Shown here in pieces: positions 1-49,591 of a stretch of 64,000 nt of DNA. Positions within the stretch are counted from its first letter, which is position 1; each line of letters begins with the position of its first letter. The notes beneath the pieces were generated by a model. It made no database searches and was not told the origin of the DNA. It worked only from the letters and a program-made list of their open reading frames with translations. The position numbers were made by a program, and so were the translations under genes. The DNA is from a virus (Duplodnaviria; Caudoviricetes): the IMG/VR virus record IMGVR_UViG_3300012346_000291, positions 2,339 through 66,338 of that record; one strand, given 5' to 3'.

Positions 1-5
1 TGAAC

Positions 6-593
6 TTGACTGAAATCAAGGCGCTACAGCGCACAATTGACAATGCTAAAAAGAAGAAATTCGTAACGACCTTGGCGCTTTCAAAACACGTGAGCAAGGC
101 CTACGAGTGGTTCAAATCCGACGAGGGTCAACAGCTATGTGAGGCCGAGGGCATCTCATGGACGGCGGAGGAGTTCGCCACAAAGGTATTTGGATGGCAA
201 AAATCGTTCTTCCACAAGGTGGTCAAGGTGGCTAAGGTTGAGGATGAGGTCATCGAGCGCTTCAACAGCGAGTGCGACCGCTTAGAGGCTGAGGGTGAGA
301 ATCCTAAGCGCTCAGTTGAGAACCTACTCAAGTTCGCCAAGGCTGTGGAGTCGGGCGCTGAGCAAGGTGGAGAGGGTGACGGCGAGGGTGACGGCGCTGA
401 GGCGGCTGTTGAGACCCGCGCTCAAGTTGCTTTCACCATGACGTTCAAAGACGGCCACAACGCAAACGTGAGTGTTCGCATCGATGAGAACGGCAAGATG
501 ACCACCACCAACAGCTTAAACGACATCAAGCGCGCTTTGATGTTCTTGTGTCAAAACGAGCAGTACCTTGAGATGTACGGCGAGCAGCAGTAA
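6..593 (+). CDS. Hypothetical early protein (may be 5'-truncated at window edge)
   Basis: 195-aa ORF with TTG start at position 6; no recognised motif. Confidence 0.6.
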   Translation: MTEIKALQRTIDNAKKKKFVTTLALSKHVSKAYEWFKSDEGQQLCEAEGISWTAEEFATKVFGWQKSFFHKVVKVAKVEDEVIERFNSECDRLEAEGENPKRSVENLLKFAKAVESGAEQGGEGDGEGDGAEAAVETRAQVAFTMTFKDGHNANVSVRIDENGKMTTTNSLNDIKRALMFLCQNEQYLEMYGEQQ

Positions 594-594
594 G

Positions 595-610
595 GTGTCT
601 TTGAAGACAC
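595..610. repeat. Dispersed 16-bp palindrome, copy 1 (GTGTCTTTGAAGACAC)
   Basis: Starts 2 nt after the stop at 593; flanked by G/C to give 18 bp. Confidence 0.9.
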
Positions 611-616
611 CCATAA

Positions 617-657
617 GCGGGAATGGTTCAAGCGAGGGTTCGACTCCCTCGCCCGCA
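617..657 (+). ncRNA. tRNA T-arm-like minihelix 1
   Basis: GCGAGGG-TTCGACT-CCCTCGC hairpin (632-652) enclosed by GCGG/CCGC; intergenic. Confidence 0.45.
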
Positions 658-687
658 ACTAATCAATAACCTTTAAAACAAAACACC

Positions 688-1563
688 ATGAAAAAAGGAA
701 TCGTTTACAATGTAACGGGCGAAGCAGCCCGCGGAGAAGTTCAGCAGTACCACTACAAGCCCGAGCCCTTGTTCTTGAACAAGAAAGCGGGTGTTGTGGA
801 TGTGGCAAGCCTTAAGAAGCGCCAACAGCAAGACGTTCTCATCTTCAATGCTGAGGGCATCGAGTCTAAGTTCACCATCGGGTTCGAGGTTGAGAAGACA
901 TCGCTTAGCCGCGGCGCTGTTCGTGAGTACGAGCTGTTTTGTGGCTTTGAGCGCGACGGGTCATGCGGGTACGAGGCCGTAACGCACATCTTACCTTTGT
1001 TGCCCGCGTCTACATGGCGCACTAAGGTGTACGACATGATGCACAAGGCCGAGCGCATTATTGATGACCGCTACAGCCCATCCGACCACCGATGTGGTGG
1101 CCACATCACCATTGGTGTTGAGGGCTTTGATGGTGACGGAATACGTGACCATATCCGCAAGTTCAGCGGGCTTATGTACGCAATGTTTCGCCACCGCTTA
1201 AAGAACGGCTACTGCAATCACAACATGAGAATGTTTGAGCATGACCCGTACAATATGCATCGCAAGTACCAAGTTGCATTGGTCAAGGGCAGCACATTGG
1301 AGTTCCGCTTGCCGTCACGCATCGAGTCGGTCAAGCAAATGATGCGCCGTTACGAGTTCATGTATGCGACTCTTGACGTGGCAATCAACAAGCCTAGCAC
1401 ATCATTCAAAAAGTACTTGACGGATATGAAGCCTTTACTCATGGCTATGTACGACGGCGATGAGGCCAAGGTCGCTAAGGTGAGCGAGTTAGCTGTTCAC
1501 TTTCAGCAGTTCATCAATACGGGTGAGAGACACGAGTCAATTCTCGAGTTCACCAATAGGTAG
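688..1563 (+). CDS. Putative amidoligase (COOH-NH2 ligase, Amidoligase_2-like)
   Basis: Motifs FTIGFEVE, ERDGSC, CGGHITIG and TLEFRLP, typical of phage amidoligases. Confidence 0.75.
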   Translation: MKKGIVYNVTGEAARGEVQQYHYKPEPLFLNKKAGVVDVASLKKRQQQDVLIFNAEGIESKFTIGFEVEKTSLSRGAVREYELFCGFERDGSCGYEAVTHILPLLPASTWRTKVYDMMHKAERIIDDRYSPSDHRCGGHITIGVEGFDGDGIRDHIRKFSGLMYAMFRHRLKNGYCNHNMRMFEHDPYNMHRKYQVALVKGSTLEFRLPSRIESVKQMMRRYEFMYATLDVAINKPSTSFKKYLTDMKPLLMAMYDGDEAKVAKVSELAVHFQQFINTGERHESILEFTNR

Positions 1564-1599
1564 AGGGTCGCAGCGGGGGTTCGACTCCCCCGCTACCTA
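1557..1599 (+). ncRNA. tRNA T-arm-like minihelix 2
   Basis: AGCGGGGG-TTCGACT-CCCCCGCT hairpin (1572-1594) enclosed by TAGGT/ACCTA. Confidence 0.45.
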
Positions 1600-1605
1600 C
1601 TGATG

Positions 1606-1621
1606 GTGTCTTTAAAGACAC
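1606..1621. repeat. Dispersed palindrome, copy 2 (GTGTCTTTAAAGACAC)
   Basis: Intergenic; perfect 18-bp palindrome including the flanks. Confidence 0.9.
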
Positions 1622-1648
1622 CGAGTATACACAATTAAACTAAACACA

Positions 1649-1870
1649 ATGACGAACAGAGAAATGATTAACAAAAAATTACCCTATCCAATATCGGACA
1701 TGGTAATTAGAAATGCAACGCCTACGGACAACGGGGATTGGCTTGATAGGGAGACCAACTGCAACTACAAATACGAGTTGCTTAGTAGAGCCTTTACATG
1801 GAATGAATCACCCGAGGGTCATGAATTTTGGGCAGAATTATTTATGAAATTATTAAGAAAGAACATATGA
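1649..1870 (+). CDS. Small early protein, PYP(I/L)SDM family paralog 1
   Basis: Shares PYPISDMVI and PEGHEFW motifs with the next two ORFs. Confidence 0.75.
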   Translation: MTNREMINKKLPYPISDMVIRNATPTDNGDWLDRETNCNYKYELLSRAFTWNESPEGHEFWAELFMKLLRKNI

Positions 1871-2091
1871 CACGAAGAGAATTTATTGAGAAAAAATTTC
1901 CGTATCCGATATCGGACATGGTAATTAAAAACTGCACAACTGAGGAATGCGGCGCATACCTTGATGCCCATGTGGCAGATTACGCAAAGCCGAGCTCTAT
2001 GCTTAAATGCTTATTCACATGGAGCTATTCCCCCGAGGGTCATTCTTTTTGGGAATCATTTCACGATAAACTTGAAGCAAAGAACCTATGA
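1867..2091 (+). CDS. Small early protein, PYP(I/L)SDM family paralog 2
   Basis: Likely start at the ATGA overlap at 1867 (MTRREF); PYPISDMVI and PEGHSFW. Confidence 0.75.
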   Translation: MTRREFIEKKFPYPISDMVIKNCTTEECGAYLDAHVADYAKPSSMLKCLFTWSYSPEGHSFWESFHDKLEAKNL

Positions 2092-2351
2092 CACGAAGAC
2101 AAACGATAGAGAAGTACGTACCCTACCCGCTCAGCGATATGCTGATACGTAACGCAGAGGAGTACATGATGCGAGGCATAGAGAGAGAGGGTTACCTTGA
2201 CGAAGAGGTCGATGGTGATTGGTGCTGCGATAGCTACGGAGATGTAAAGATACACGACATAATCATCACAATAATTTGGCTACATCAAACCATAGAGGGG
2301 CTTGACTTTTGGAATAAAATACACGATAACTTTTTAATGAAAAACCTATGA
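2088..2351 (+). CDS. Small early protein, PYP(I/L)SDM family paralog 3
   Basis: PYPLSDMLI and EGLDFW; ATGA overlaps at both ends. Confidence 0.75.
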   Translation: MTRRQTIEKYVPYPLSDMLIRNAEEYMMRGIEREGYLDEEVDGDWCCDSYGDVKIHDIIITIIWLHQTIEGLDFWNKIHDNFLMKNL

Positions 2352-2791
2352 GAACAAATCAACTAAATGCATTTGAAGCTTGGATTGGCGAGGGAAATGC
2401 GCAAGTAATTGACAACGCTTGGAGCACACAAGATTCCATGTGGACAAACCGAATAGAGACTAAGGGTCAGCTATGGGCCTACTATCTACGTGAGTTCTTT
2501 GGTGTGACACCCGCTCAGTACGTATTCACTGAGGTGTTACCCTACATGAACGTAGTAAGTGAGCGCGAGTATGTGCTCAAGTACAACAACGCATCACAAT
2601 GGATTGTGGACCTATTCATGACATTGCGCTCAGCTGAGTTCGGTCAGTTCGCCTCATGGGAGGGGCTAAGCTTTAAGTCGGGCGGAGCTGAGTTCCGCAT
2701 CGAGAAAGAGCATGGGCGCTTCGGTAAGTACGGGCGCTTATACATCACCTTAGCAGACTATGACTGCGCGGGTGACTTCCTTGCTAACTAA
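2348..2791 (+). CDS. Hypothetical early protein
   Basis: 147-aa ORF, translationally coupled to the upstream gene. Confidence 0.7.
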   Translation: MRTNQLNAFEAWIGEGNAQVIDNAWSTQDSMWTNRIETKGQLWAYYLREFFGVTPAQYVFTEVLPYMNVVSEREYVLKYNNASQWIVDLFMTLRSAEFGQFASWEGLSFKSGGAEFRIEKEHGRFGKYGRLYITLADYDCAGDFLAN

Positions 2792-2798
2792 GCGAGGA

Positions 2799-2815
2799 TG
2801 TTGATAGTGAGAGAG
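2799..2815 (+). promoter_or_regulatory. Oriented motif B, copy 1 (TGTTGATAGTGAGAGAG)
   Basis: 17-bp identity with 11608-11624; lies just after a stop codon. Confidence 0.55.
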
Positions 2816-2857
2816 GGCTGCGGCTGTGTCTTTGAAGACACCCGCTCTCTCTTATTT
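2809..2857 (+). terminator. Terminator-like hairpin enclosing palindrome copy 3
   Basis: GAGAGA/TCTCTC and GCGG/CCGC arms around the palindrome; weak TTATTT tail. Confidence 0.45.
2826..2841. repeat. Dispersed palindrome, copy 3
   Basis: GTGTCTTTGAAGACAC, intergenic. Confidence 0.9.
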
Positions 2858-2884
2858 AGAATCATTTTAAATTAACAGAACCTA

Positions 2885-2914
2885 TTGCATTGTAATAGAA
2901 TTGTAGTACCTTTG
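2885..2914 (+). promoter_or_regulatory. Bacteroidota primary-sigma promoter
   Basis: TTG at 2885 and TACCTTTG (-7 box TAnnTTTG) at 2907-2914, 19-nt spacer. Confidence 0.75.
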
Positions 2915-2936
2915 TAATCTAATAACAGAACATAAC

Positions 2937-3116
2937 ATGAAAAATCTAATTATCCTTAAAGCAGCGACCTTGTTTGGTCTTATCTTGGCTACGGCCTTAT
3001 TCTCATCATGCGGCAGCAGCAAGACGTATGTGCATTGCGACGCGTACAAGACGCAGTACAAGCCAATCAAGGCAGATAAGCATAGACACCACATCAAATG
3101 CGACGCATACAATTAA
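2937..3116 (+). CDS. Small lipoprotein (59 aa) with two CDAY motifs
   Basis: Hand-translated MKNLIILKAATLFGLILATALFSSC-GSSK...; signal peptide plus lipobox Cys25; absent from the ORF track. Confidence 0.7.
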   Translation: MKNLIILKAATLFGLILATALFSSCGSSKTYVHCDAYKTQYKPIKADKHRHHIKCDAYN

Positions 3117-3137
3117 TAACCTATAAAACAGAACGAA

Positions 3138-3443
3138 ATGAAAACACCAATCAAATATGAAATCATGGCCGCAATGCTTAAGTATGTAACTAACGCGAGC
3201 GCTGATGGATACGGACAGCTTAAGACAATGGATGTGCACGTTGTGTTCGGAGACCGCACTAAAGAGTTCCTTGAGTACCTTGAGAAAGACCCAATCATCA
3301 AGGTGAGCACATACGGGTGGACATACGGAACGTACAAAGGTATCGGTGGACTACACGATATCAATGATAAGCACTTCCGTATGATGTGCCAAGAGGCTTG
3401 GGCAAATAACAAAAGCAGAACTAGAAATCTAAACCAATGGTAA
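3138..3443 (+). CDS. Hypothetical early protein
   Basis: 101-aa ORF with A-rich start context. Confidence 0.65.
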   Translation: MKTPIKYEIMAAMLKYVTNASADGYGQLKTMDVHVVFGDRTKEFLEYLEKDPIIKVSTYGWTYGTYKGIGGLHDINDKHFRMMCQEAWANNKSRTRNLNQW

Positions 3444-3628
3444 GAGTATACTTCGAAAGAGGTCTTCGCGCAGACCTCGTAGCTGTGTTCATGGATGAAC
3501 TAACCTACCAACAATGCGTACCCGCCCTAGAGCGCCTATGCAAGGACATGGGCTACGATAGCGTAACGGAGTCAGTAGAGTACTCCTTGAAGACTGAGTT
3601 ATTAATCACCCAAATCAAACAGCTATGA
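3437..3628 (+). CDS. Hypothetical early protein
   Basis: 63-aa ORF overlapping its neighbours. Confidence 0.6.
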   Translation: MVRVYFERGLRADLVAVFMDELTYQQCVPALERLCKDMGYDSVTESVEYSLKTELLITQIKQL

Positions 3629-3786
3629 CAAAATTTAAAATTTCATTTCAAGACATCGATGGTAACGAGTTATGGACGTCGATTACAGAACAATTAACAA
3701 TGTTTGATGCCTATGAGTATGCTAATCTTATTTGTGCCAATTCAATGGTAAATGATTTAGCTAGTTACGAAATAACAAAACTTTAA
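3625..3786 (+). CDS. Hypothetical protein (53 aa)
   Basis: Hand-translated MTKFKISFQDIDGNELW...; ATGA overlap; fills the gap. Confidence 0.55.
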   Translation: MTKFKISFQDIDGNELWTSITEQLTMFDAYEYANLICANSMVNDLASYEITKL

Positions 3787-3790
3787 AGAT

Positions 3791-3988
3791 ATGACAGAAC
3801 AGCAGAAAAAAGAGATGGTACAAGAAATCTTGGATAGAGTCATGTACCTCCCGTCGGCTAAGAGACGCGACTTCTTAGACACCATTCATGACCTCATCGA
3901 GGAGTACCCATTAGAGTATACCCTCAACGATAGAGGAATGAGAATTTATACTAACCCTAATTTTAAAACAGAACAATCATGTGCGTAA
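3791..3988 (+). CDS. Hypothetical early protein
   Basis: 65-aa ORF. Confidence 0.6.
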   Translation: MTEQQKKEMVQEILDRVMYLPSAKRRDFLDTIHDLIEEYPLEYTLNDRGMRIYTNPNFKTEQSCA

Positions 3989-5019
3989 TCATCGTAAAAA
4001 ACAACAACAAGAAAATCGAATCACAAATTCTCAAGACAGCGAGCAGCATCAATCCCGACGGGCTTGGCATCGTGTGGCTTGACACCTACGAGGTATCACA
4101 TCACCGCTCAACTGAGTACAAGTTGCTCGACACCTCGCGCCCGTTCATTGCTCATTTTCGCTACGCGACCATTGGTAAGATAGGCCCTGCTAACACACAC
4201 CCATTCCAATGTGGTGTGCAGTCGGATGAGTGGTTGATGATGAACGGAACTATCTACGGCCTTGGCAACGCTAATGAGTGCGACAGCAAGGTACTTGCGC
4301 GTAACCTTGGACGAGTAGACAGAGGGCTGTGGAAAGCAGAGCTAGAGAAGCACAACTCGCGCTTCGTTACGTTCAACACGCGCACTAAGTCGTACCAAAT
4401 GTACAATCGCGCGGATTGGGTGCAGCACGACGGCGTATGGTATTCCAAGGGTAACGTCATCGAGAAGAACTTAGTGGCTGTATACGGCACGCTTAAGAAA
4501 GGTAACTCAAACTATTGGAACTACCTAGCGGACTCTCAGTTTGTGGGTGCGGGTGAGACAGCGGACAAGTATCCGCTCATCATCAAGGGCTTACCATACC
4601 TCATCAATCACAAGGGTGTTGGATACAACGTAGACGTGGACGTGTTCAACGTGTCGGACGATGTACTTAAAGCGCTTGATAGACTCGAGGGTCACCCAAG
4701 GTGGTACAAGAGAGAGAAGGTCAACATCAAGGTTGGCGCTCAAACGCTCAGCTGTTGGATATACTTCATGGAGGGCATGGGTGTAGGACGTGAGGATAAA
4801 ATCTACAAGTCTTACAAGCAGTCTTACAAGCACGAGGTGATTACGGCTGATGAGTCTGAGGTTGACTTGTTTTGCATGAACTGCTTACACGAGGTAGAGC
4901 ATGACGAGTTGGACGTATACTTCTGCAAGAGTTGCGGCAGTTGGTTTACTGAGAATGAACTACTTGAATTTAATGGTGTCTTTGAAGACACTGATACAGC
5001 TAACGAATTACCATTTTAA
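3979..5019 (+). CDS. Class II glutamine amidotransferase fused to gamma-glutamylcyclotransferase-like domain and C-terminal Zn ribbon
   Basis: N-terminal MC (Ntn Cys), AHFRYAT..G...NTHPF, MMNG; VAVYGTLKKG (GGCT/AIG2-like); CMNC..CKSC. Confidence 0.8.
   Translation: MCVIIVKNNNKKIESQILKTASSINPDGLGIVWLDTYEVSHHRSTEYKLLDTSRPFIAHFRYATIGKIGPANTHPFQCGVQSDEWLMMNGTIYGLGNANECDSKVLARNLGRVDRGLWKAELEKHNSRFVTFNTRTKSYQMYNRADWVQHDGVWYSKGNVIEKNLVAVYGTLKKGNSNYWNYLADSQFVGAGETADKYPLIIKGLPYLINHKGVGYNVDVDVFNVSDDVLKALDRLEGHPRWYKREKVNIKVGAQTLSCWIYFMEGMGVGREDKIYKSYKQSYKHEVITADESEVDLFCMNCLHEVEHDELDVYFCKSCGSWFTENELLEFNGVFEDTDTANELPF
4976..4991. repeat. Dispersed palindrome, copy 4 (in CDS, encodes V-F-E-D-T)
   Basis: GTGTCTTTGAAGACAC. 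Confidence 0.9.
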
Positions 5020-5021
5020 TC

Positions 5022-5213
5022 ATGAGAAGATTTGAGAATTTATTGTACACGTTTGTAGGTGTAGGACTAGGGATGCTAATTGCGGCATCCCTTTACGAGA
5101 AGGAGATACAAAAGATATATGAAATCGTCGAGATTCCAAAGACGAGCGATATAACGGACGACCTTGCTGATAGTGAGAAAGGATATTACGAACACTTATA
5201 CAACACGAAATGA
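5022..5213 (+). CDS. Small single-TM protein
   Basis: Hydrophobic N-terminal segment; contains motif B copy 2 (5165-5178). Confidence 0.6.
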   Translation: MRRFENLLYTFVGVGLGMLIAASLYEKEIQKIYEIVEIPKTSDITDDLADSEKGYYEHLYNTK

Positions 5214-5440
5214 GACCACAAGACTTAGACATGGCTACATGGGAGGAGCTGTTTGACTACATCCTCGAGAGCAAGATGAACGGACAGAGAAAGCAGAGCA
5301 TTGAGCTATATCAAGCGCTCAGTGAAGCGAAGCGCGTTCAGTTTATAGATTACTTAATTGAGATGACCGAACAAGGATGGATGTCATCATTAGACTTAGC
5401 ACAAACAATGAAATATTATGAATATGAAAGTAAAAATTAA
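5210..5440 (+). CDS. Hypothetical early protein
   Basis: 76-aa ORF with YILESKMNGQ motif. Confidence 0.65.
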   Translation: MRPQDLDMATWEELFDYILESKMNGQRKQSIELYQALSEAKRVQFIDYLIEMTEQGWMSSLDLAQTMKYYEYESKN

Positions 5441-5825
5441 CATCGAAAAAGAAATCAGCAGACAAACATTGGAGAACATTTTTGTCACAGCGATAGAGGG
5501 CGGCAGCAACTATTGGTATGCTATATCAAGTGAAACAAAAAGAGCCATACGTGAGGTTGTCAGCAGAGAGGAAGACCCGTACTTCTCAACAGCATTATTT
5601 ACCGCTGTGATGGATAGAGACCTAGCTGTAGATATACACGACGCGGAGGACAACGAGACCATCCTAGGTACGCTAACTTTAGATAACATAAAGGAGAGAC
5701 TGCAAGCTTTAGCCGAATCCGACGATGCTCAACACCTAATGGATGAGTTGATGGAGACGGGTGATGCTATAACATCTGACGTTTGTTTCCAATACATGGT
5801 GATGGGCGAAATTATTTTCGGATAA
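5418..5825 (+). CDS. Conserved phage early protein of unknown function
   Basis: AIEGGSNYW...DAITSD..Q...GEIIFG pattern, recognised as recurring in phage early regions. Confidence 0.7.
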   Translation: MNMKVKINIEKEISRQTLENIFVTAIEGGSNYWYAISSETKRAIREVVSREEDPYFSTALFTAVMDRDLAVDIHDAEDNETILGTLTLDNIKERLQALAESDDAQHLMDELMETGDAITSDVCFQYMVMGEIIFG

Positions 5826-5826
5826 G

Positions 5827-5857
5827 TTGCATATATGTAACAATTGTATTATATTTG
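5827..5857 (+). promoter_or_regulatory. Bacteroidota primary-sigma promoter
   Basis: TTG at 5827 and TATATTTG at 5850-5857. Confidence 0.75.
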
Positions 5858-5874
5858 TAATCTAAATAAAGACT

Positions 5875-6189
5875 ATGAGCAGACTAAATAAAATCCTAAT
5901 CGAGGAGAAGACAAGCGGACTCGCTAACAATAGGAGCATTCAAATCATACAGCAAGCCATCGACAAGAAAGAGAGAATCACATTCAAGGACTTTATTGAC
6001 TCGGGTGTATTCATTCCAAGCAAGCTAGACTTTTTCGGTGAGGTGGTAAGGTACATGGGTGGCTTTTATATCTTCTTTGATAAGGACTACTATGCTAAGA
6101 ATGGCAACGACTCATTTCACAGCGACTCACTAAAAGATGTAGAGAAGTGGCTATGGGATAACGTGGCTGATAAAAAAATTAACTCATGA
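5875..6189 (+). CDS. Hypothetical protein
   Basis: 104-aa ORF downstream of the promoter. Confidence 0.65.
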   Translation: MSRLNKILIEEKTSGLANNRSIQIIQQAIDKKERITFKDFIDSGVFIPSKLDFFGEVVRYMGGFYIFFDKDYYAKNGNDSFHSDSLKDVEKWLWDNVADKKINS

Positions 6190-6488
6190 AAAAAAGTGTA
6201 TTCACCCAATTTGTAAAGATAGTATCAAAGATGTTTGAGCTCACACCCGAGCAGCTATTCGAGAATACTAAGAGGCGCTCAGTGACTGAGGCCCGACAAC
6301 TATTTATATTTCTATGCATTCGACGACAGATACCCATGTGCAACATTATGGATTGGTCATTAGAGTACGGACGTAAGTTCACTTACTCATCAATCATCAA
6401 CGCTGTAAGGTACATGGAGCGCAAGGTTTCAGACGACAGAGACTACGTTAGAATAATTAGAGAGATAGAATCCAAAGTAATCAATTAA
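6186..6488 (+). CDS. DnaA domain IV-like HTH protein
   Basis: V..MFELTPEQL....KRRSVTEARQLFIFLC resembles the DnaA C-terminal DNA-binding domain. Confidence 0.55.
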   Translation: MKKSVFTQFVKIVSKMFELTPEQLFENTKRRSVTEARQLFIFLCIRRQIPMCNIMDWSLEYGRKFTYSSIINAVRYMERKVSDDRDYVRIIREIESKVIN

Positions 6489-6501
6489 AAACAAATAACA
6501 C

Positions 6502-7134
6502 ATGAAAGAACAATCAGTTTTCAAAACGTTGTCCGACGTAAACATCAAGGACAAAATCGAGACAAAGGGTAACGTCAAGTACCTATCGTGGTCATACGCA
6601 TGGGAGATACTCAAGGCGCACTACCCACAAGCTAAGCGCGTGGTGTATGAGAACCCATCTACGGGACTCAACTACTTTACGGATGGCAACACCGCATACG
6701 TCAAGGTTGGTGTAGAGGTTGATGGCATTGAGAACATCGACTACCTACCTATCATGGACTTCCGAAATCAGTCAATTAGATTGGATAAGCTTACATCTAT
6801 GGACGTCAACAAGGCCATTCAGCGTTCGACTGCTAAGGCTATAGCTATGCATGGTCTAGGCCTACAGCTATGGACGGGTGAGGATATGCCTGAGATGACT
6901 ACAGCCAAACCACAAGGCAGCGTGTCTTCAAAGACACAGCGTGCTGATAGTGAGACAGAGCAGCCTAAGGAATTGCCTACGCTAATGGTCAACTCTGATG
7001 ACTACACAAAGGTGTTCAAGTACGTTCAAGATAACGCAGCGCTTGGAGCGGAGAAGGTCATCAAGCAGATTGAGCGCAAGTATAAGTTGACTACAATCAT
7101 CAAGAAAATTTTAATCAAAGAAATAACAAAGTAA
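6502..7134 (+). CDS. Sak/Rad52-like single-strand annealing protein (DUF1071-like)
   Basis: YLSWSYAW, YLPIMDFRNQSI, DVNKAIQR..AKAIAMHGLGL. Confidence 0.8.
   Translation: MKEQSVFKTLSDVNIKDKIETKGNVKYLSWSYAWEILKAHYPQAKRVVYENPSTGLNYFTDGNTAYVKVGVEVDGIENIDYLPIMDFRNQSIRLDKLTSMDVNKAIQRSTAKAIAMHGLGLQLWTGEDMPEMTTAKPQGSVSSKTQRADSETEQPKELPTLMVNSDDYTKVFKYVQDNAALGAEKVIKQIERKYKLTTIIKKILIKEITK
6922..6937. repeat. Dispersed palindrome, copy 5 (GTGTCTTCAAAGACAC; encodes V-S-S-K-T)
   Basis: In the SSAP linker; motif B copy 3 follows at 6942-6955. Confidence 0.9.
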
Positions 7135-7137
7135 GCT

Positions 7138-7872
7138 ATGAGTAACGTAACAGAACAACTAAGAAATGACGCTGAGTACTACAAAGGCGTCGGTAAGAAC
7201 TACCTATCTAACTCGGATATCTCAGCGCTCCTTGGCAACCCCAAGGAGTACGGGGTTGAGCGAGAAGACAACAAGTCTTTTGCTGAGGGTAGATTGTTTC
7301 ACCAACTACTAATCGAGCCCGACAAGGCTATTGACGTGCACGTTGTAGACGCGTCAACGCGCAATACCAAAATCTACAAGGACTACTGCGATTCCAATGG
7401 CTTGGACATTTGTTTGTTGCAGCATGAGGTTGACAAGATGAAGCAGTTGACTCAAGTCATGAAGTCTAACATCTACTTCTACGATGAGATTTACAAGGAC
7501 GGAAACCTATACGAGGAGCCCGCCATTGGAGAGATTAAGGGTATGATGTGGAAGGGCAAGGCCGACATCATTACTGATGAGGTCATCATCGACTTGAAGA
7601 CTACCTCAGACATCAAGAAGTTCAAGTGGTCAGCTAAGGCCTACAACTACGACAGCCAAGCCTACATCTACCAAAAGCTATTCGGTAAGCCGCTTATCTT
7701 CTTTGTAATAGACAAAGAGACCGCTCAGTTAGGTATCTTCCGTCCTACCGAGAACTTTATCTTAGGCGGCGAGCGCAAGGTTGAGAGAGCCATTGAGGTG
7801 TATAAGACGTACTTTGGTGACAACCCAACTGATGACATCGACAACTACTACATCGATGAGGAGCTAGATTAA
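7138..7872 (+). CDS. PD-(D/E)XK exonuclease (RecE/exonuclease VIII-like, DUF3799-like)
   Basis: LSNSDI, KGKADI...IIDLKTT, YNYDSQAYIY; adjacent to the SSAP. Confidence 0.8.
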   Translation: MSNVTEQLRNDAEYYKGVGKNYLSNSDISALLGNPKEYGVEREDNKSFAEGRLFHQLLIEPDKAIDVHVVDASTRNTKIYKDYCDSNGLDICLLQHEVDKMKQLTQVMKSNIYFYDEIYKDGNLYEEPAIGEIKGMMWKGKADIITDEVIIDLKTTSDIKKFKWSAKAYNYDSQAYIYQKLFGKPLIFFVIDKETAQLGIFRPTENFILGGERKVERAIEVYKTYFGDNPTDDIDNYYIDEELD

Positions 7873-7891
7873 TAATTAAAAACAAACAGAC

Positions 7892-8263
7892 ATGAGGATT
7901 ACAGATGTTTATAAAGTAACATACCAATACAATCATGACAGATACTTAGGTCTTTTAAGAAATGAAAAGCGATTTAATATAGGAGATGTAGTGTTTGTTG
8001 GTTTTGGTGATACAATTTTTAAAACTAGGATATATGGTGTTACTTTAAGTGATAGTCTCGATGCTCCTGAGTTTACATACAAAATTGAATTACCTAAAGA
8101 AGTAGCTGTTGATTGGGATGGCAACTTCATAGAAGTTATTTGCGATAGGATGTTCAATACAATTGAAGAAGCAAAGGAGTCTGCGTTAAAGCAAGCTGAG
8201 AAGTTTTATAAACTTGAGGTCAATAAAATCAATCAATTTTTCAAACAATACGAAAGCAAATGA
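7892..8263 (+). CDS. Hypothetical protein
   Basis: 123-aa ORF at the start of the AT-rich block. Confidence 0.65.
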   Translation: MRITDVYKVTYQYNHDRYLGLLRNEKRFNIGDVVFVGFGDTIFKTRIYGVTLSDSLDAPEFTYKIELPKEVAVDWDGNFIEVICDRMFNTIEEAKESALKQAEKFYKLEVNKINQFFKQYESK

Positions 8264-8433
8264 AAATAAATAAGAAAAAAAGACAAGATGAGTTATCAAT
8301 ACAATACAGACTTCTTTCAGAGATAGAGTCAGAGTTTGGTTATTCTTCTCAGCATAAAGTAGCAGCGTTTGTTCAAAAGAAAATGCTTAAAATTTTAAAT
8401 GAATTATCACAACTTAAACAACAAGAACAATGA
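8260..8433 (+). CDS. Cassette ORF (57 aa) ending KQQEQ
   Basis: Hand-translated MKINKKKRQDELSIQY...LKQQEQ*. Confidence 0.65.
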   Translation: MKINKKKRQDELSIQYRLLSEIESEFGYSSQHKVAAFVQKKMLKILNELSQLKQQEQ

Positions 8434-8594
8434 AAACACATTTAATAACATCTATTACTTTACTTTTAGTAATTGTATGTATTGGATTAACATATTTATT
8501 TCCAATATTAGGATTAGTAGCATTATGCATTATAACTCTTGCATTAGTTTATTACCTTATATATGAATTTATTGAGAATGATTTTAACTTTTAA
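8430..8594 (+). CDS. Cassette ORF, 54-aa membrane protein
   Basis: Hand-translated MKTHLITSITLLLVIVCIGLTYLFPILGLVALC...; almost entirely hydrophobic. Confidence 0.6.
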   Translation: MKTHLITSITLLLVIVCIGLTYLFPILGLVALCIITLALVYYLIYEFIENDFNF

Positions 8595-8606
8595 ACAACC
8601 CGAACA

Positions 8607-8885
8607 ATGAAACAACAATTGACAGGTGTAGAATACATCAAATTAAAATTATTAGGAGACGAGTATTGGTATGAAAATCTAACCTTTGACAACATCTTTG
8701 AACAAGCAGAAAAAATTGATAAAAGACTAAAACACGAATCAATTGAAAGCCAAGTTGCTATTTTAAAAGATACGCTTGATGAGATGATGACTGGCTTTGA
8801 CTCTGAAGAGGATAGAATGGACTTCATTCTTGACATTTGCAACGGGTATAAAAAACGAATTGAAACTAAACAACAAGAACAATGA
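8607..8885 (+). CDS. Cassette ORF (92 aa), copy 1
   Basis: Identical to 9343-9621; ends KQQEQ. Confidence 0.75.
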   Translation: MKQQLTGVEYIKLKLLGDEYWYENLTFDNIFEQAEKIDKRLKHESIESQVAILKDTLDEMMTGFDSEEDRMDFILDICNGYKKRIETKQQEQ

Positions 8886-9127
8886 AAACAGCAGTAGAAT
8901 GGTTGCAAATGGTGTTAATACCAATCCCATATGACGAAGAAGACCTTGAACACAATAGAAAATGTTGGGAACAAGCCAAAGAAATGGAGAAGGAGCAGAG
9001 AAAGAAGTGTTTTTTTGACGGAAAATTAATGTGTATAAACAATAAGGATATTTCTTTTGAAGATTATGAATTGGGTAATTTCAACAACCCACGAGTACAT
9101 TTTGCAACTAAACAACAAGAACAATGA
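8882..9127 (+). CDS. Cassette ORF, MKTAVEWL family
   Basis: MKTAVEWL...WEQAKEMEKEQ; ends KQQEQ. Confidence 0.75.
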   Translation: MKTAVEWLQMVLIPIPYDEEDLEHNRKCWEQAKEMEKEQRKKCFFDGKLMCINNKDISFEDYELGNFNNPRVHFATKQQEQ

Positions 9128-9330
9128 AAACAAAATTTTTACAAAGTGTAGAGAGATACACAAAAGAACAACAAGGAAAAACCGGATACAAGGCTATTTA
9201 TAGCGATGGTTTAGATTTTCAAACATTATTTTTCCCGATTAGAAATGGAGTAGATGTTATCAACATTCCTTCAATTATTAACTCAGTTCAATTAAAAGCT
9301 GATTTTGAAGCTATTGGTGCAGAATTTTAA
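9124..9330 (+). CDS. Cassette ORF, MKTKFLQ family copy 1
   Basis: Diverged paralog of 9973-10179. Confidence 0.75.
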   Translation: MKTKFLQSVERYTKEQQGKTGYKAIYSDGLDFQTLFFPIRNGVDVINIPSIINSVQLKADFEAIGAEF

Positions 9331-9342
9331 AGAACAAGAACG

Positions 9343-9621
9343 ATGAAACAACAATTGACAGGTGTAGAATACATCAAATTAAAATTATTAGGAGACGAGT
9401 ATTGGTATGAAAATCTAACCTTTGACAACATCTTTGAACAAGCAGAAAAAATTGATAAAAGACTAAAACACGAATCAATTGAAAGCCAAGTTGCTATTTT
9501 AAAAGATACGCTTGATGAGATGATGACTGGCTTTGACTCTGAAGAGGATAGAATGGACTTCATTCTTGACATTTGCAACGGGTATAAAAAACGAATTGAA
9601 ACTAAACAACAAGAACAATGA
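9343..9621 (+). CDS. Cassette ORF (92 aa), copy 2
   Basis: Nucleotide-identical to 8607-8885. Confidence 0.7.
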   Translation: MKQQLTGVEYIKLKLLGDEYWYENLTFDNIFEQAEKIDKRLKHESIESQVAILKDTLDEMMTGFDSEEDRMDFILDICNGYKKRIETKQQEQ

Positions 9622-9824
9622 AAACAGCAGTAGAATGGTTGATGGATGAACACTTTGGAGGTATAGATAATTGTACTCCCGATTTTAAAAACAACATTTT
9701 TCAAGCGATGGATATGGAAGAAAACATAGCAACTGAATATGCCGAGCATCGTATTAAATTTAATAGTCTTGGCACTCCACACTTAAGTTTTGATGAGTGG
9801 AAAAGATGGATTGGCAAACCTTAA
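9618..9824 (+). CDS. Cassette ORF, MKTAVEWL family
   Basis: First 24 nt shared with 8882, then diverges. Confidence 0.7.
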   Translation: MKTAVEWLMDEHFGGIDNCTPDFKNNIFQAMDMEENIATEYAEHRIKFNSLGTPHLSFDEWKRWIGKP

Positions 9825-9834
9825 ATAATAAAAA

Positions 9835-9951
9835 ATGAAAAAGAAAATAGGTGTTTATAATACTTTAATAATTATTCAAACGCGCAATAAAAAAGGAGAT
9901 ATTTTATATAAGGTAAAAGATATTAGTACAACTAAAAAACAAGAACAATAG
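9835..9951 (+). CDS. Cassette ORF (38 aa) ending KKQEQ
   Basis: Hand-translated MKKKIGVYNTLIIIQ...TKKQEQ*. Confidence 0.45.
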   Translation: MKKKIGVYNTLIIIQTRNKKGDILYKVKDISTTKKQEQ

Positions 9952-9972
9952 TAACAATTAAAACAAAATAAA

Positions 9973-10179
9973 ATGAAAACAAAATTTTTACAAAGTGTAG
10001 AGAGATACACAAACGAACAAGAAGGAAAAACAGGTTACAAGGCTATTTATAGCAATGGAATTGATTTTCAAACATTATTCTTCCCAATTAGAAATGGAGT
10101 AGATGTTATTAACATTCCTTCAATTATTAACTCAGCTCAGACAATAGATGATTTGGAAGCTATTGGAGCAGAACTTTAA
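9973..10179 (+). CDS. Cassette ORF, MKTKFLQ family copy 2
   Basis: Paralog of 9124-9330. Confidence 0.75.
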   Translation: MKTKFLQSVERYTNEQEGKTGYKAIYSNGIDFQTLFFPIRNGVDVINIPSIINSAQTIDDLEAIGAEL

Positions 10180-10190
10180 AATAAAATAAA

Positions 10191-10418
10191 ATGAAAGAAG
10201 AAATTGTAAGAGAATCAGGAGTTGACTCATATGTAGTTGACTTTGGAAAGAATGGTCAAGGAATCACTAATGAGTTAGTCCTTATTGGCAAAAGGATACA
10301 AGATTTGAGTGAATATTATAATGTCTATATGAGCAGCGATAGCTTCATTGATGCAGCAGATGATGTTTACACTTTGAAATTTATCTTATCTCCTAAAGAT
10401 GAAAAGCAAGACAATTAA
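10191..10418 (+). CDS. Hypothetical protein
   Basis: 75-aa ORF. Confidence 0.6.
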   Translation: MKEEIVRESGVDSYVVDFGKNGQGITNELVLIGKRIQDLSEYYNVYMSSDSFIDAADDVYTLKFILSPKDEKQDN

Positions 10419-10737
10419 TGTTCCTATTTATGAATGTGGCCTCACAATTATTCTTACTGATGACCTTAATGAAGTTGTAAAAAAATACAAGCTGGAAGGC
10501 GATTGGGATAATTTTGGGGCTTTAACATTTGAGGACAAGTCAAAGCATAGACACTATGTAGTAGCTTTTACTGATGCCAGTCATTTAAGCAATATAGCAC
10601 ACGAGATTGTACATATTAAGAACTATATCTTTCATGGTATCAACGCTAAGATTGACCTATATAATGACGAGCCTGAAGCGTACTTAACAGGATGGCTATT
10701 TGACAAGATTTATGAATTTTTAAATCAAGAACAATGA
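10399..10737 (+). CDS. Small HExxH zincin-like protein, ends NQEQ
   Basis: AHEIVH...DEPEAYL motif. Confidence 0.65.
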   Translation: MKSKTINVPIYECGLTIILTDDLNEVVKKYKLEGDWDNFGALTFEDKSKHRHYVVAFTDASHLSNIAHEIVHIKNYIFHGINAKIDLYNDEPEAYLTGWLFDKIYEFLNQEQ

Positions 10738-10811
10738 ATCAAGAAGACTACTACCGACTCTTACATCTTTTAGCGGGAATTACTATCGGATACCTAATCT
10801 TTATGTTATGA
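10734..10811 (+). CDS. Micro-ORF, 25-aa hydrophobic peptide
   Basis: MNQEDYYRLLHLLAGITIGYLIFML; ATGA-coupled at both ends. Confidence 0.45.
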   Translation: MNQEDYYRLLHLLAGITIGYLIFML

Positions 10812-10915
10812 AAAATAGAAATGACCGCAGAGAAGAGATGGGCGCATACGGAACTATGATACTCATAGGACTGCTAGTCATATACTTAGCAATAATGTTA
10901 ATAACTCGACTATGA
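10808..10915 (+). CDS. Micro-ORF, 35-aa single-TM peptide
   Basis: MKNRNDRREEMGAYGTMILIGLLVIYLAIMLITRL; ATGA-coupled. Confidence 0.5.
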   Translation: MKNRNDRREEMGAYGTMILIGLLVIYLAIMLITRL

Positions 10916-11001
10916 AATATCAACAAAATAATTTGATATATGCGTACATATTCTTAATTTTGATAAATGTTTGTACAGCGTACTGCATATTAAATTCCTA
11001 G
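10912..11001 (+). CDS. Micro-ORF, 29-aa hydrophobic peptide
   Basis: MKYQQNNLIYAYIFLILINVCTAYCILNS. Confidence 0.4.
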   Translation: MKYQQNNLIYAYIFLILINVCTAYCILNS

Positions 11002-11025
11002 TAACCAATTAAATCCAATAACAAT

Positions 11026-11298
11026 ATGAATCAATTAAAATTCAACCACGATGCCGAGAACTTTCACGAAGCTTTAGGTAGCAACGTAGAGGACTTTGCA
11101 ACAGAACTATCAAAGTGTGTACAAGATTTTGGTGATGTAGAAGACATGACGATGAGCAAATTAGCAGAGAGACTACATTAAAAATTATCTTATGAGTATA
11201 TCCTTATTCTTGCAACACGTGAGGTACAAAAAACCATAGAGAAATTCAACGAAAAAATGTTGAAAGATTTATTAACAAAATTAACTAAAGAAGACTAA
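11026..11298 (+). pseudogene. 90-codon frame interrupted by an in-frame TAA
   Basis: TAA at 11179-11181; the frame stays open and protein-like to 11298. Confidence 0.5.
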
Positions 11299-11302
11299 TA
11301 CC

Positions 11303-11605
11303 ATGGAACAAAAAGAAAGAACATTTGCAGACGGATTTATTTTCAAGAGAAGAGAAGACGCACCCGACTTCGTAGTCGGAGCACTATCCGTAAAAGTTGA
11401 CGAGGCCATCGCCTTTATGCGTACACACGAGAAGAACGGATGGGTGAATTTAGACATCAAGTACGGGAGAACGGGCAACGCTTACGTTGAACTGAACACC
11501 TATGAATCAAAAAAGAATGTCGATTCTACACCAACGCAGCAACAACCAAGAGTAAAGGCCGCTCCCGCCCCTCAAGATGATGAGGATGAGGACTTGCCTT
11601 TCTAA
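11303..11605 (+). CDS. SSB-like protein
   Basis: Short core plus acidic tail ending DDEDEDLPF; next to replication genes. Confidence 0.55.
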   Translation: MEQKERTFADGFIFKRREDAPDFVVGALSVKVDEAIAFMRTHEKNGWVNLDIKYGRTGNAYVELNTYESKKNVDSTPTQQQPRVKAAPAPQDDEDEDLPF

Positions 11606-16993: not shown

Positions 16994-17356
16994 ATGACAA
17001 GTAAAAAAGCAACAGAGATTGTATACGAGCTAAAGAAGAACGCTCAAGTTCCAATCATAGACCAAGTAATTTGGAGAGAGTATTCTGACGATGGTAACCA
17101 CAAAGAGTGGACATATCAACAGCTTGTTGAGCTGTCGCAGTTCAAAGACAAACACGTTGAGAATGTGGTAGAGTTATTTAATGAGCGCTCCGCTGCGGGA
17201 TACCGCAAGTACGGGACTACTCTTGAGAGAGACGACCTATCGCTAGACCAATGGCTTAATCATTTAATGGAGGAGCTGATGGACGCAACCCTTTACATTT
17301 CAAAAATTAGAGAGGAATTAAATAAAATTCCTAACTTTGGACATGGCTCAAAGTGA
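16994..17356 (+). CDS. Possible MazG-like nucleotide pyrophosphatase
   Basis: GYRKYGTTLERDDL...WLNHLMEELMDATLY. Confidence 0.45.
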   Translation: MTSKKATEIVYELKKNAQVPIIDQVIWREYSDDGNHKEWTYQQLVELSQFKDKHVENVVELFNERSAAGYRKYGTTLERDDLSLDQWLNHLMEELMDATLYISKIREELNKIPNFGHGSK

Positions 17357-48556: not shown

Positions 48557-49591
48557 TCAGAATATATGGGATAAACGTGCAACTTGCCCATTAATCTTAT
48601 GATGCAAAAATCCTTCAATCGCTTTGGGGGCGTGCTGATAGCCTTTGACGTGATGCCATGAGTCCGCACCCGATGGAGAGCGTAATGACTCAACGGTTAC
48701 TCCAATGTAGTCTTTTGAGAACTTATGATGCACGTGATGCGTGTACACGTATCTATGTTTTGTAGCGGCCCAATCTATTGGAAACTCCGTAGCCATCAAT
48801 AACGGAAGGTCTTGGTTCTTAGCACCATCTCCATGAGTAGTCCCAACTAGGTTTAGTCCATATCTAAATGCCTTCCTATGCGAAATTGAGCAGTCAAAAG
48901 TAATCTGTTTGCAGTCTTTAAACCACGTTCTAATAACGTCAGCAAGGAAGAAGCCATGAACATAATCGTGGTTTGAGGGATTAAAAGTAAAATGAACGTC
49001 AGCCACAGCAAGGAGCCTTTCAAGAATCTCAACATATAATTGTTTTGCTATTAAAAAATTAGAGTACCACATTCCGTCCGTATCCTGAGGAGTACCTGCC
49101 GTAGTGGTTCGTCTCGGTGTGTCAATGTGAAGGATGTCGTTACCACCAATAAAAAGTATCTTGTCGATGTTGAATCCTTTAGATTTATCTAAAATGCCTT
49201 GGACGCCTTCTAAGACGCGCTGAACTGCTATCTGATTGTTGTACGTCTCTCCGGTCTCAAAAGCATCGCATAGTTTACCTATGTGCACGTCAGCGGGGTC
49301 TATTACCAATAGATGAGATTCCTCTAAGTCATCTCTCTTTAATATCTCATACTTGGGTGTATGCGCATCAATATCCTTTAAGATAGACTCACGAATCCGC
49401 TCGTAATTCTCCTCCTCCTTCTCCTTGAAGTTTGGGTTCTTAAAGAATAATGATGATGTCTTAGATTTTATCCAACCATGCTTTACGTCTTTATCATTAA
49501 GACCTAAGTCATTGGCCTCATTTTTAATTGCTCGGTACTGAGAAACTATCTCAAACTCCTCTCGTGTAATCCTTGGACGGAATTTACTCAT
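48557..49591 (-). CDS. Calcineurin-like metallophosphoesterase
   Basis: DVHIG, GNDILH, SNHD, THG, HVHH. Confidence 0.8.
   Translation of the reverse strand: MSKFRPRITREEFEIVSQYRAIKNEANDLGLNDKDVKHGWIKSKTSSLFFKNPNFKEKEEENYERIRESILKDIDAHTPKYEILKRDDLEESHLLVIDPADVHIGKLCDAFETGETYNNQIAVQRVLEGVQGILDKSKGFNIDKILFIGGNDILHIDTPRRTTTAGTPQDTDGMWYSNFLIAKQLYVEILERLLAVADVHFTFNPSNHDYVHGFFLADVIRTWFKDCKQITFDCSISHRKAFRYGLNLVGTTHGDGAKNQDLPLLMATEFPIDWAATKHRYVYTHHVHHKFSKDYIGVTVESLRSPSGADSWHHVKGYQHAPKAIEGFLHHKINGQVARLSHIF

Follow-up and report, generated by a model that had tools for sequence, protein, structure and literature searches.

We describe a 22-base junction element, TTAAACAACAAGAACAATGAAA, at which the small genes of a viral array adjoin one another. 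The array was found in a 64,000-nucleotide (nt) stretch of DNA (hereafter, the window) that corresponds to positions 2339-66338 of a 66,338-bp IMG/VR virus record (IMGVR_UViG_3300012346_000291; Caudoviricetes) rated as complete. It is held in an inserted block of ~3.4 kb (7873..11300, + strand), delimited by its low guanine-plus-cytosine (GC) content and by synteny around the upstream exonuclease gene in the related contigs L128-L159, with the block absent from most relatives. Directly upstream lie genes for a Sak (Rad52-like) single-strand annealing protein (6502..7134, + strand; PF06378, E 1.4e-33) and its partner, a PD-(D/E)XK exonuclease of the DUF3799 type (7138..7872, + strand; PF12684, E 3.7e-18). 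The initial annotation of the window, made from the sequence alone, had placed this pair next to the array and had described the block as AT-richer than 1-7870; both observations hold, with GC content at 0.31 over 7873-10915 as compared to 0.41 in the remaining window. All array open reading frames (ORFs) are on the + strand, separated by overlaps or 12-nt gaps.

Junction copies and cassettes in the window

An exact 24-mer, TAAACAACAAGAACAATGAAAACA, occurs at 8415, 8867, 9109 and 9603 and in none of 100 shuffles, and four degenerate copies are found at 8593, 9329, 9934 and 10720, as first annotated. Searching with the 13-base core AACAAGAACAATG at no more than 2 mismatches retrieved 8 matches, all on the + strand within 8420-10736; outside the array the core search gave only 3 weak matches in the rest of the window, and none in the remainder of the 66,338-bp genome. 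ORF positions bear out the claim that every copy sits at a gene boundary. In five of the eight copies stop and start overlap as ATGA (ATG at 8430, 8882, 9124, 9618 and 10734), the upstream protein ending in KQQEQ or NQEQ, while the upstream ORF of copies 8593 and 9329 is terminated by a TAA internal to the element, 12 nt before the ATG. The start codon of copy 9934 has decayed from ATG to ATA.

The array begins with an orphan cassette of 123 amino acids (aa) (7892..8263), preceded by a degenerate junction-like leader (7873-7894) at the place where the relative L127 has a junction, and a 57-aa cassette ending in KQQEQ (8260..8433). The first canonical junction (8414..8435; like the other three, at an exact 24-mer copy and with ATGA overlap) leads to a 54-aa membrane protein (8430..8594) that is 88-95% identical in nt to L046, L061, L040 and L064, junction to junction. 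After the variant AACAACCCGAACAATG (8591..8612), private to the window and with its upstream ORF ending at the internal TAA, comes a 92-aa cassette ending in KQQEQ (8607..8885), which is 96% identical in nt to L008, with homology stopping at the junction. Its protein is a paralog within the TAVEWL family, the largest among the junction-flanking proteins (consensus MKTAVEWL...QAKEMEKEQ...YYNETFKQQEQ). The canonical junctions at 8866..8887 and 9108..9129 bracket an 81-aa cassette of the same family (8882..9127), also ending in KQQEQ, and the second of them opens a 68-aa cassette (MKTKFLQS...; 9124..9330) that is 87.5% identical in nt to L019 and has a paralog at 9973-10179. A second variant private to the window, AAGAACAAGAACGATG (9327..9348), precedes a duplicate of the 92-aa cassette encoding an identical protein (9343..9621, by repeat comparison), and the last canonical junction (9602..9623) precedes a 68-aa cassette (9618..9824; 91-94% identical in nt to L047 and L042) from a distant TAVEWL-family member. 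A 38-aa cassette (9835..9951) then ends in KKQEQ at the decayed junction (9931..9952), a core with mismatches. The 68-aa paralog (9973..10179; 92% identical in nt to L019) has an ordinary A-rich leader, and an orphan cassette of 75 aa (10191..10418) follows it. A 112-aa cassette assigned to phrog_1365 and ending in NQEQ (10399..10737) is 80% identical in nt to L098, homology ending at the junction; it contains HEIVH, possibly an HExxH metal-binding motif. The final junction (10718..10739) is two bases shorter, retains the ATGA overlap, and has a 5' half resembling the second allele described below. It opens a hydrophobic cassette of only 25 aa (10734..10811), for which nt homology to L105, L121 and L080 starts at the junction. 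The terminal cassette, a 35-aa membrane protein (10808..10915), is shared with L128. Its family (35-42 aa, motif ...R.E.MAAYGTMIL...) follows 12 upstream families and never stands before a junction, being always last in its array.

Beyond the array lies a conserved 100-aa gene with an acidic tail (11303..11605, + strand), directly 3' of the exonuclease gene in most relatives; it has no Pfam match, and the tail (...DEDLPF) suggests a single-stranded DNA-binding (SSB)-type protein. Two duplications within the array, 8589-8888 with 9325-9624 (99% identity) and 9123-9340 with 9972-10189 (89% identity), are both bounded by junctions, as the annotation had noted for duplicated units.

No family was found in Pfam or PHROG for the window cassette proteins, apart from phrog_1365 for 10399-10737; a cassette profile search of PDB sequences found nothing, and the cassette Atlas search returned viral hypothetical clusters only. 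The AlphaFold model of 8882-9127 predicts a plain helical bundle with a disordered junction-encoded tail.

The junction across viral contigs

At least 120 IMG/VR contigs match a 20-mer of the junction exactly, often with 2-5 copies per contig at a spacing of 200-650 bp. These carrier loci and the window total 1.1 Mb, and the copy, family and pair counts for this first allele are drawn from them. They hold 383 plus-strand copies and 7 minus-strand copies, in arrays of 2-10 copies whose downstream ORFs have a median length of 63 aa. Conservation is limited to positions -16..+5 (numbered from the start codon), with none outside. The junction is nearly invariant among carriers whose core proteins are 52-61% identical in aa. 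Bacterial genomes (596 Gb) yielded 11 single copies only, nearly all in Bacteroidota, so the junction is not a host repeat. When ORF starts are scored for mismatches against the 22-mer, the distribution is bimodal (peak at 0-1, trough at 3-5, bulk near 11), and the remaining genes of carrier phages have merely a loose A-rich leader. The element, with copies in the window genome confined to the array, is therefore not a genome-wide start context, an outcome that the initial annotation had said would refute its reading. L007 and L019 proved to be parts of one 173.8-kb contig, from a large phage with two arrays (one with at least 7 copies), one of them downstream of a gene for a RecA/Sak4-like ATPase.

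The element has A at 0, -3, -6, -12 and -13 and lacks a Shine-Dalgarno sequence. In Flavobacterium johnsoniae, A at these same five positions raises initiation, and the ribosomes ignore Shine-Dalgarno sequences (PMC6847099, Baez et al. 2019). The junction RNA is predicted to be unstructured (folding energy about -2 kcal/mol, z near 0). Stops occur in two frames inside the element, TAA at -15 and TGA at +1. An ATGA overlap is present in 172 of the 383 copies (115 of the 172 encode KQQEQ), the upstream ORF ends at the TAA in another 52, and 131 copies have no upstream ORF of at least 25 aa. Some copies are directly 3' of a tRNA end (L024 and L032, e.g. L032 around 424-443, ...GGTTCGAATCCTGTCCTGACTAC...) and others follow a terminator hairpin. 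Because copies occur in such places, many without an upstream ORF, the element is primarily a leader for the gene that follows, with the shared C-terminal peptide arising as a by-product.

We infer a role in translation. The adenine determinants and ATGA overlaps are consistent with the initial proposal that the junction is both a start context and a stop/start coupler; we read it as common to small, apparently promoterless accessory genes in phages of Flavobacteria-type Bacteroidota. In the mRNA, each gene would receive an unstructured, Shine-Dalgarno-free leader with adenines at -3, -6, -12 and -13, and the two stops would close the upstream gene on the next start codon or shortly ahead of it, letting translation pass from gene to gene. 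Promoter scans (Bacteroidetes-type and sigma-70-type) and a terminator scan, crude as they are, gave no excess in the array. No Bacteroidetes -33/-7 match was found at the junctions, whose conserved 22 nt lack promoter hexamers. The Bacteroidetes promoter consensus (TTTG, 17-23 nt spacer, TAnnTTTG) has its sole match in the region at 10932-10962, right after the terminal cassette; window-wide there are 6 matches against 3.2 expected, which is not significant.

A second allele, TTTAAATCAGAATAAGATG (K-S-E-stop, then ATG), was taken from L128 (8735-8756 and 9095-9116) and is exact in at least 120 contigs, of which L172-L291 were collected. It has 256 plus-strand and 10 minus-strand copies with a conserved block from -20 to +2, likewise carries A at -3, -6, -12 and -13, and shares 49 of 118 loci with the first allele. 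The element might be kept solely as an expression signal, either an optimal Bacteroidia start or a binding site for an RNA-binding regulator of early small genes, with recombination an incidental by-product. Both alleles do contain every known adenine determinant, and their sharp bounds and fixed C and G positions suggest specific recognition; the copies behind tRNAs and terminators that lack an upstream gene fit as well, as does the rarity of allele hybrids (the search found one, besides the window copy at 10718..10739, which looks like one). We nonetheless consider this explanation rather unlikely. Two near-invariant alleles, among core genes as diverged as those above, exceed what the adenine positions need, whereas other genes of the same phages manage with loose A-rich leaders and the decayed copies in the window still precede intact ORFs. 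Moreover, we found no candidate regulator gene that co-occurs in all lineages, and the neighbor turnover at junctions, described below, would be left to explain. The excess of conservation over the needs of a start signal fits spread and homogenization of the two alleles by homology-dependent exchange.

The initial annotation also held that unrelated ORFs share termini at the junction, which needs to be qualified for the window. A TAVEWL profile hidden Markov model, built with window sequences excluded and termini stripped, matches the cassettes at 8882 (7e-12), 8607 and 9343 (3e-8), and 9618 (2e-4). Since these four form one diverse family, the MKTAVEWL start common to them is characteristic of that family. 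One could then suppose that the junction is just the boundary inherited from tandem TAVEWL duplications, joining the C-terminal YYNETFKQQEQ to the N-terminal MKTAVEWL, and no general linker; the family consensus carries both termini, and both alleles share the upstream sequence ACCTTTAAA, which encodes the family's TFK. Yet 138 of the 218 two-sided junctions have no TAVEWL-family member on either side, the flanking proteins fall into 146 families (86 upstream, 91 downstream), and some copies follow tRNAs and terminators, making this account improbable for the junction at large. Such duplication may be how the element arose, but it does not account for how widely the element is now spread.

A related form is found in a cultured phage. 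Flavobacterium phage elemoA (MT497017; L171:2480-2910), one of the Elemovirus phages of Flavobacterium sp. BAL314, encodes a TAVEWL-family protein (MNTAVEWL...YYNEKFKK), and the small genes that follow its primase gene are joined at a different repeated junction, AAATAAGAT(A)TG. Nucleotide searches of GenBank phages with the window region gave no match, and a 48-nt junction query retrieved spurious matches only, apart from the MKTAVEW codons of Elemovirus phages.

Cassette exchange and the history of the locus

Each window cassette has its closest nt relative (80-96% identity) in a different contig, with homology that spans the interval between two junctions or ends at one, and cassettes are 88-96% identical in nt to single cassettes in contigs with unrelated core genes. 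When all loci are combined, left ends of homology cluster at -15/-16 and right ends at +3..+6. In the pair L083 and L125, whose flanks are 90-100% identical, indels of cassette blocks begin and end at junctions, and adjacent homology blocks overlap by 34 nt. Array content and order vary even where the adjacent exonuclease genes are 97-99% identical. Neighbor combinations are correspondingly diverse, the 218 two-sided junctions giving 173 distinct family pairs. For a linkage test, limited to small genes, we asked whether two occurrences of one family keep the same downstream family. Over all pairs the fraction that do is 0.032 across a junction as compared to 0.32 across other boundaries; for copies at least 90% identical it is 0.36 as compared to 0.81, and for copies 70-90% identical, 0.06 as compared to 0.70. 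Overall, linkage between neighbors comes out 4-10 times weaker at junctions than at ordinary boundaries of small genes. The effect is large despite the non-independence of the gene pairs. We take these comparisons of aligned loci to establish a pattern of exchange at junctions, in keeping with the variable cassette order and junction breakpoints expected among relatives under the initial annotation.

The site of the array varies too. In most phages with a related exonuclease, nothing lies between the exonuclease gene and the conserved 100-aa gene; in the window the two are 3.4 kb apart. The closest relative, L127 (89.5% nt identity), has a junction and a TAVEWL gene immediately 3' of the exonuclease gene, unlike the first cassette of the window; L107 has a different three-junction array at this same site; L128 has a two-gene array with the other junction allele; and in L102 the array is located elsewhere. 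With junction-free inserts also found here (see below), the gap between the exonuclease and 100-aa genes is a hot spot independent of the motif. These independent contigs with arrays or remnants at one site also bear on whether metagenome assembly created the array as a chimera by joining sequences at repeated junctions. The contig comes from an uncultured source, repeats 300 bp at 99% identity and changes sharply in GC content, which invites that suspicion, but the left and right ends of the insert have no canonical junction and the same architecture recurs in hundreds of contigs from many samples; we find a chimera scarcely credible.

Arrays average 0.306 GC whatever the GC content of the host phage, and in 41 of 43 the AT content exceeds that of the array's own flanks. 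The window array, set in a 0.41 GC genome, matches this average, which fits a shared pool. The window phage belongs to a lineage apart from the main carriers, with an 815-aa primase-like protein and with Sak where those carriers have ERF. A spring-water contig is its nearest relative in the database, and phages of Flavobacterium, Nonlabens, Polaribacter and Cellulophaga come next. The gene order found in about half of the carriers comprises a DnaA-C-type helix-turn-helix protein, a DnaD-like loader, a primase/helicase-like protein, NinG, ERF, exonuclease, a small conserved protein, the array, and the small and large terminase subunits. The ERF annealing protein and a phrog_5715 exonuclease stand beside the array in about 53-62 of the 120 carrier loci listed.

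Two further regions of the window have counterparts among carriers. A 120-aa protein (16994-17356; motif KYGTTLER...WLNHL.EELMDATLY) has homologs in 61 of 120 carrier loci, usually just upstream of the array; a MazG-like identity was guessed for it but was not confirmed by Pfam or PDB. A second accessory gene set on the minus strand (48557-51845) has homologs at 49-78% aa identity in junction-bearing contigs and no junction motif in the window.

The junction is probably a translation start that doubles as a homology linker for the exchange of cassettes. At the DNA level, every 200-400 bp brings another copy of the same 22-40 bases, which are common to phages that may co-infect a cell; homologous recombination between non-allelic copies would delete, duplicate, swap or import whole genes, each still ready for expression. 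The enzymes would most likely be the phage annealing proteins, Sak or ERF, with their exonucleases. Rad52-like recombinases, a group that takes in ERF, can use homology that is short and diverged (PMC3945230) and are thus plausible agents. A part for Sak in junction exchange is plausible but conjectural; most carriers have, in place of Sak, an ERF-type annealing protein together with an exonuclease. The window array would then be a 3.4-kb import from the shared cassette pool of ~31% GC into the hot spot 3' of the exonuclease gene.

Several points weigh against a linker role for the junction. Some concern the enzymes: relatives with the same Sak-exonuclease pair lack arrays, and arrays of further lineages adjoin genes for a RecA/Sak4-like ATPase, queuosine genes, phosphoesterases, a methyltransferase, a helicase or ParB, so that adjacency to an annealing protein is frequent, not universal. 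A length of 22 bases is, moreover, close to the minimum for efficient use by annealing proteins. Others concern the site, for seven relatives (L137, L141, L144, L146, L147, L149 and L157) have unrelated, junction-free inserts of 1.1-3.5 kb between the exonuclease and 100-aa genes, and genes at junctions may simply lie in a more plastic region. As for the motif, half of the window junctions are decayed variants private to the window, so the exact sequence is not required there, and the rarity of hybrids counts here as well. Finally, any motif common to otherwise unrelated genes will set the limits of homology at its edges, however this came about; the pairs in the linkage test are not independent; and the case for recombination at junctions is built on comparing sequences.

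Known systems and implications

The initial annotation likened the array to an integron, though one free of an integrase. The likeness extends to co-oriented, apparently promoterless single-gene cassettes with precise boundaries and with variable order and content, features that would also be expected if some unrecognized site-specific recombinase cut and joined DNA at the junction. It does not extend to the machinery. Integrons have the integrase IntI, attC hairpins and an attI/Pc platform, whereas the junction array has none of these and its exchange appears to be homology-dependent: no PF00589 tyrosine recombinase is present in the complete 66-kb genome (positive controls were found), no inverted repeat or hairpin was found at the window junctions, and the neighboring genes are those of annealing proteins and exonucleases. 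With neither integrase nor hairpin site the array is not an integron, and we judge a true integron-like system of this kind very improbable.

The closest known parallel is the promoter-early stem-loop (PeSL), a repeated, conserved regulatory motif in the hyperplastic regions of T4-type phages that lies just upstream of small orphan genes (PMC2839356, Arbiol et al. 2010; PMC4122927, Comeau et al. 2014). PeSLs are ~100 bp long and combine a sigma-70 promoter with a terminator stem-loop, acting in transcription, and excised mini-circles have been shown (PMC2839356, PMC4122927). As with PeSLs, the junction array is a hyperplastic region of small orphan genes, where indels or replacements between relatives end at the motif and each moved gene brings its own expression signal. 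Unlike PeSLs, the junction has only 22 bases with neither promoter nor hairpin, and appears to offer a translational stop/start with a Shine-Dalgarno-free leader; it is further distinguished by its Bacteroidota hosts and by being nearly letter-for-letter the same across unrelated phage lineages.

Modular theory holds that short conserved sequences at gene boundaries guide homologous exchange, and lambdoid boundary sequences of this kind are weak and inconsistent. The junction differs from these in being a single near-invariant sequence with hundreds of copies, plus a discrete second allele. In position, the main-lineage arrays resemble the lambda nin region, lying between the NinG, ERF and exonuclease genes and the packaging genes and consisting of small mosaic genes.

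With the Kozak-like initiation regions of Bacteroidia the junction shares adenine positions, low structure and the lack of a Shine-Dalgarno sequence, but that general signal is a loose adenine preference, whereas the junction occurs at only some genes and is one unchanging 22-mer, its C and G positions invariant. With translationally coupled operons it has the ATGA overlap in common.

We place the junction among the recombination linkers of phage hyperplastic regions; searches of the accessible literature, for its sequence and for the concept in Flavobacteria phages, found no earlier description. Apart from the PeSLs of T4-type phages, clear examples of linker-guided exchange are few to our knowledge. 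The junction provides a very clean case, with hundreds of copies, single genes moved between unrelated phages, and approximately ten times more neighbor turnover than ordinary boundaries. The question is directly testable, as cultured Flavobacterium phages have related junctions and F. johnsoniae has reporter tools. The junction might also serve as a natural adaptor where arrays of expressed genes are to be built in hosts without Shine-Dalgarno sequences.

More broadly, the arrays flag a large pool of small, unannotated accessory genes. We tentatively suggest, while leaning toward doubt, that Bacteroidota phages may share a plug-and-play system of exchange that crosses lineages, in which at least two junction alleles would act as address tags, annealing protein and exonuclease modules would drive the exchange, and the pool would be a reservoir of host-takeover or anti-defence genes. 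The alleles may then be kept near-invariant because any small gene that bears one can enter any array ready for expression.

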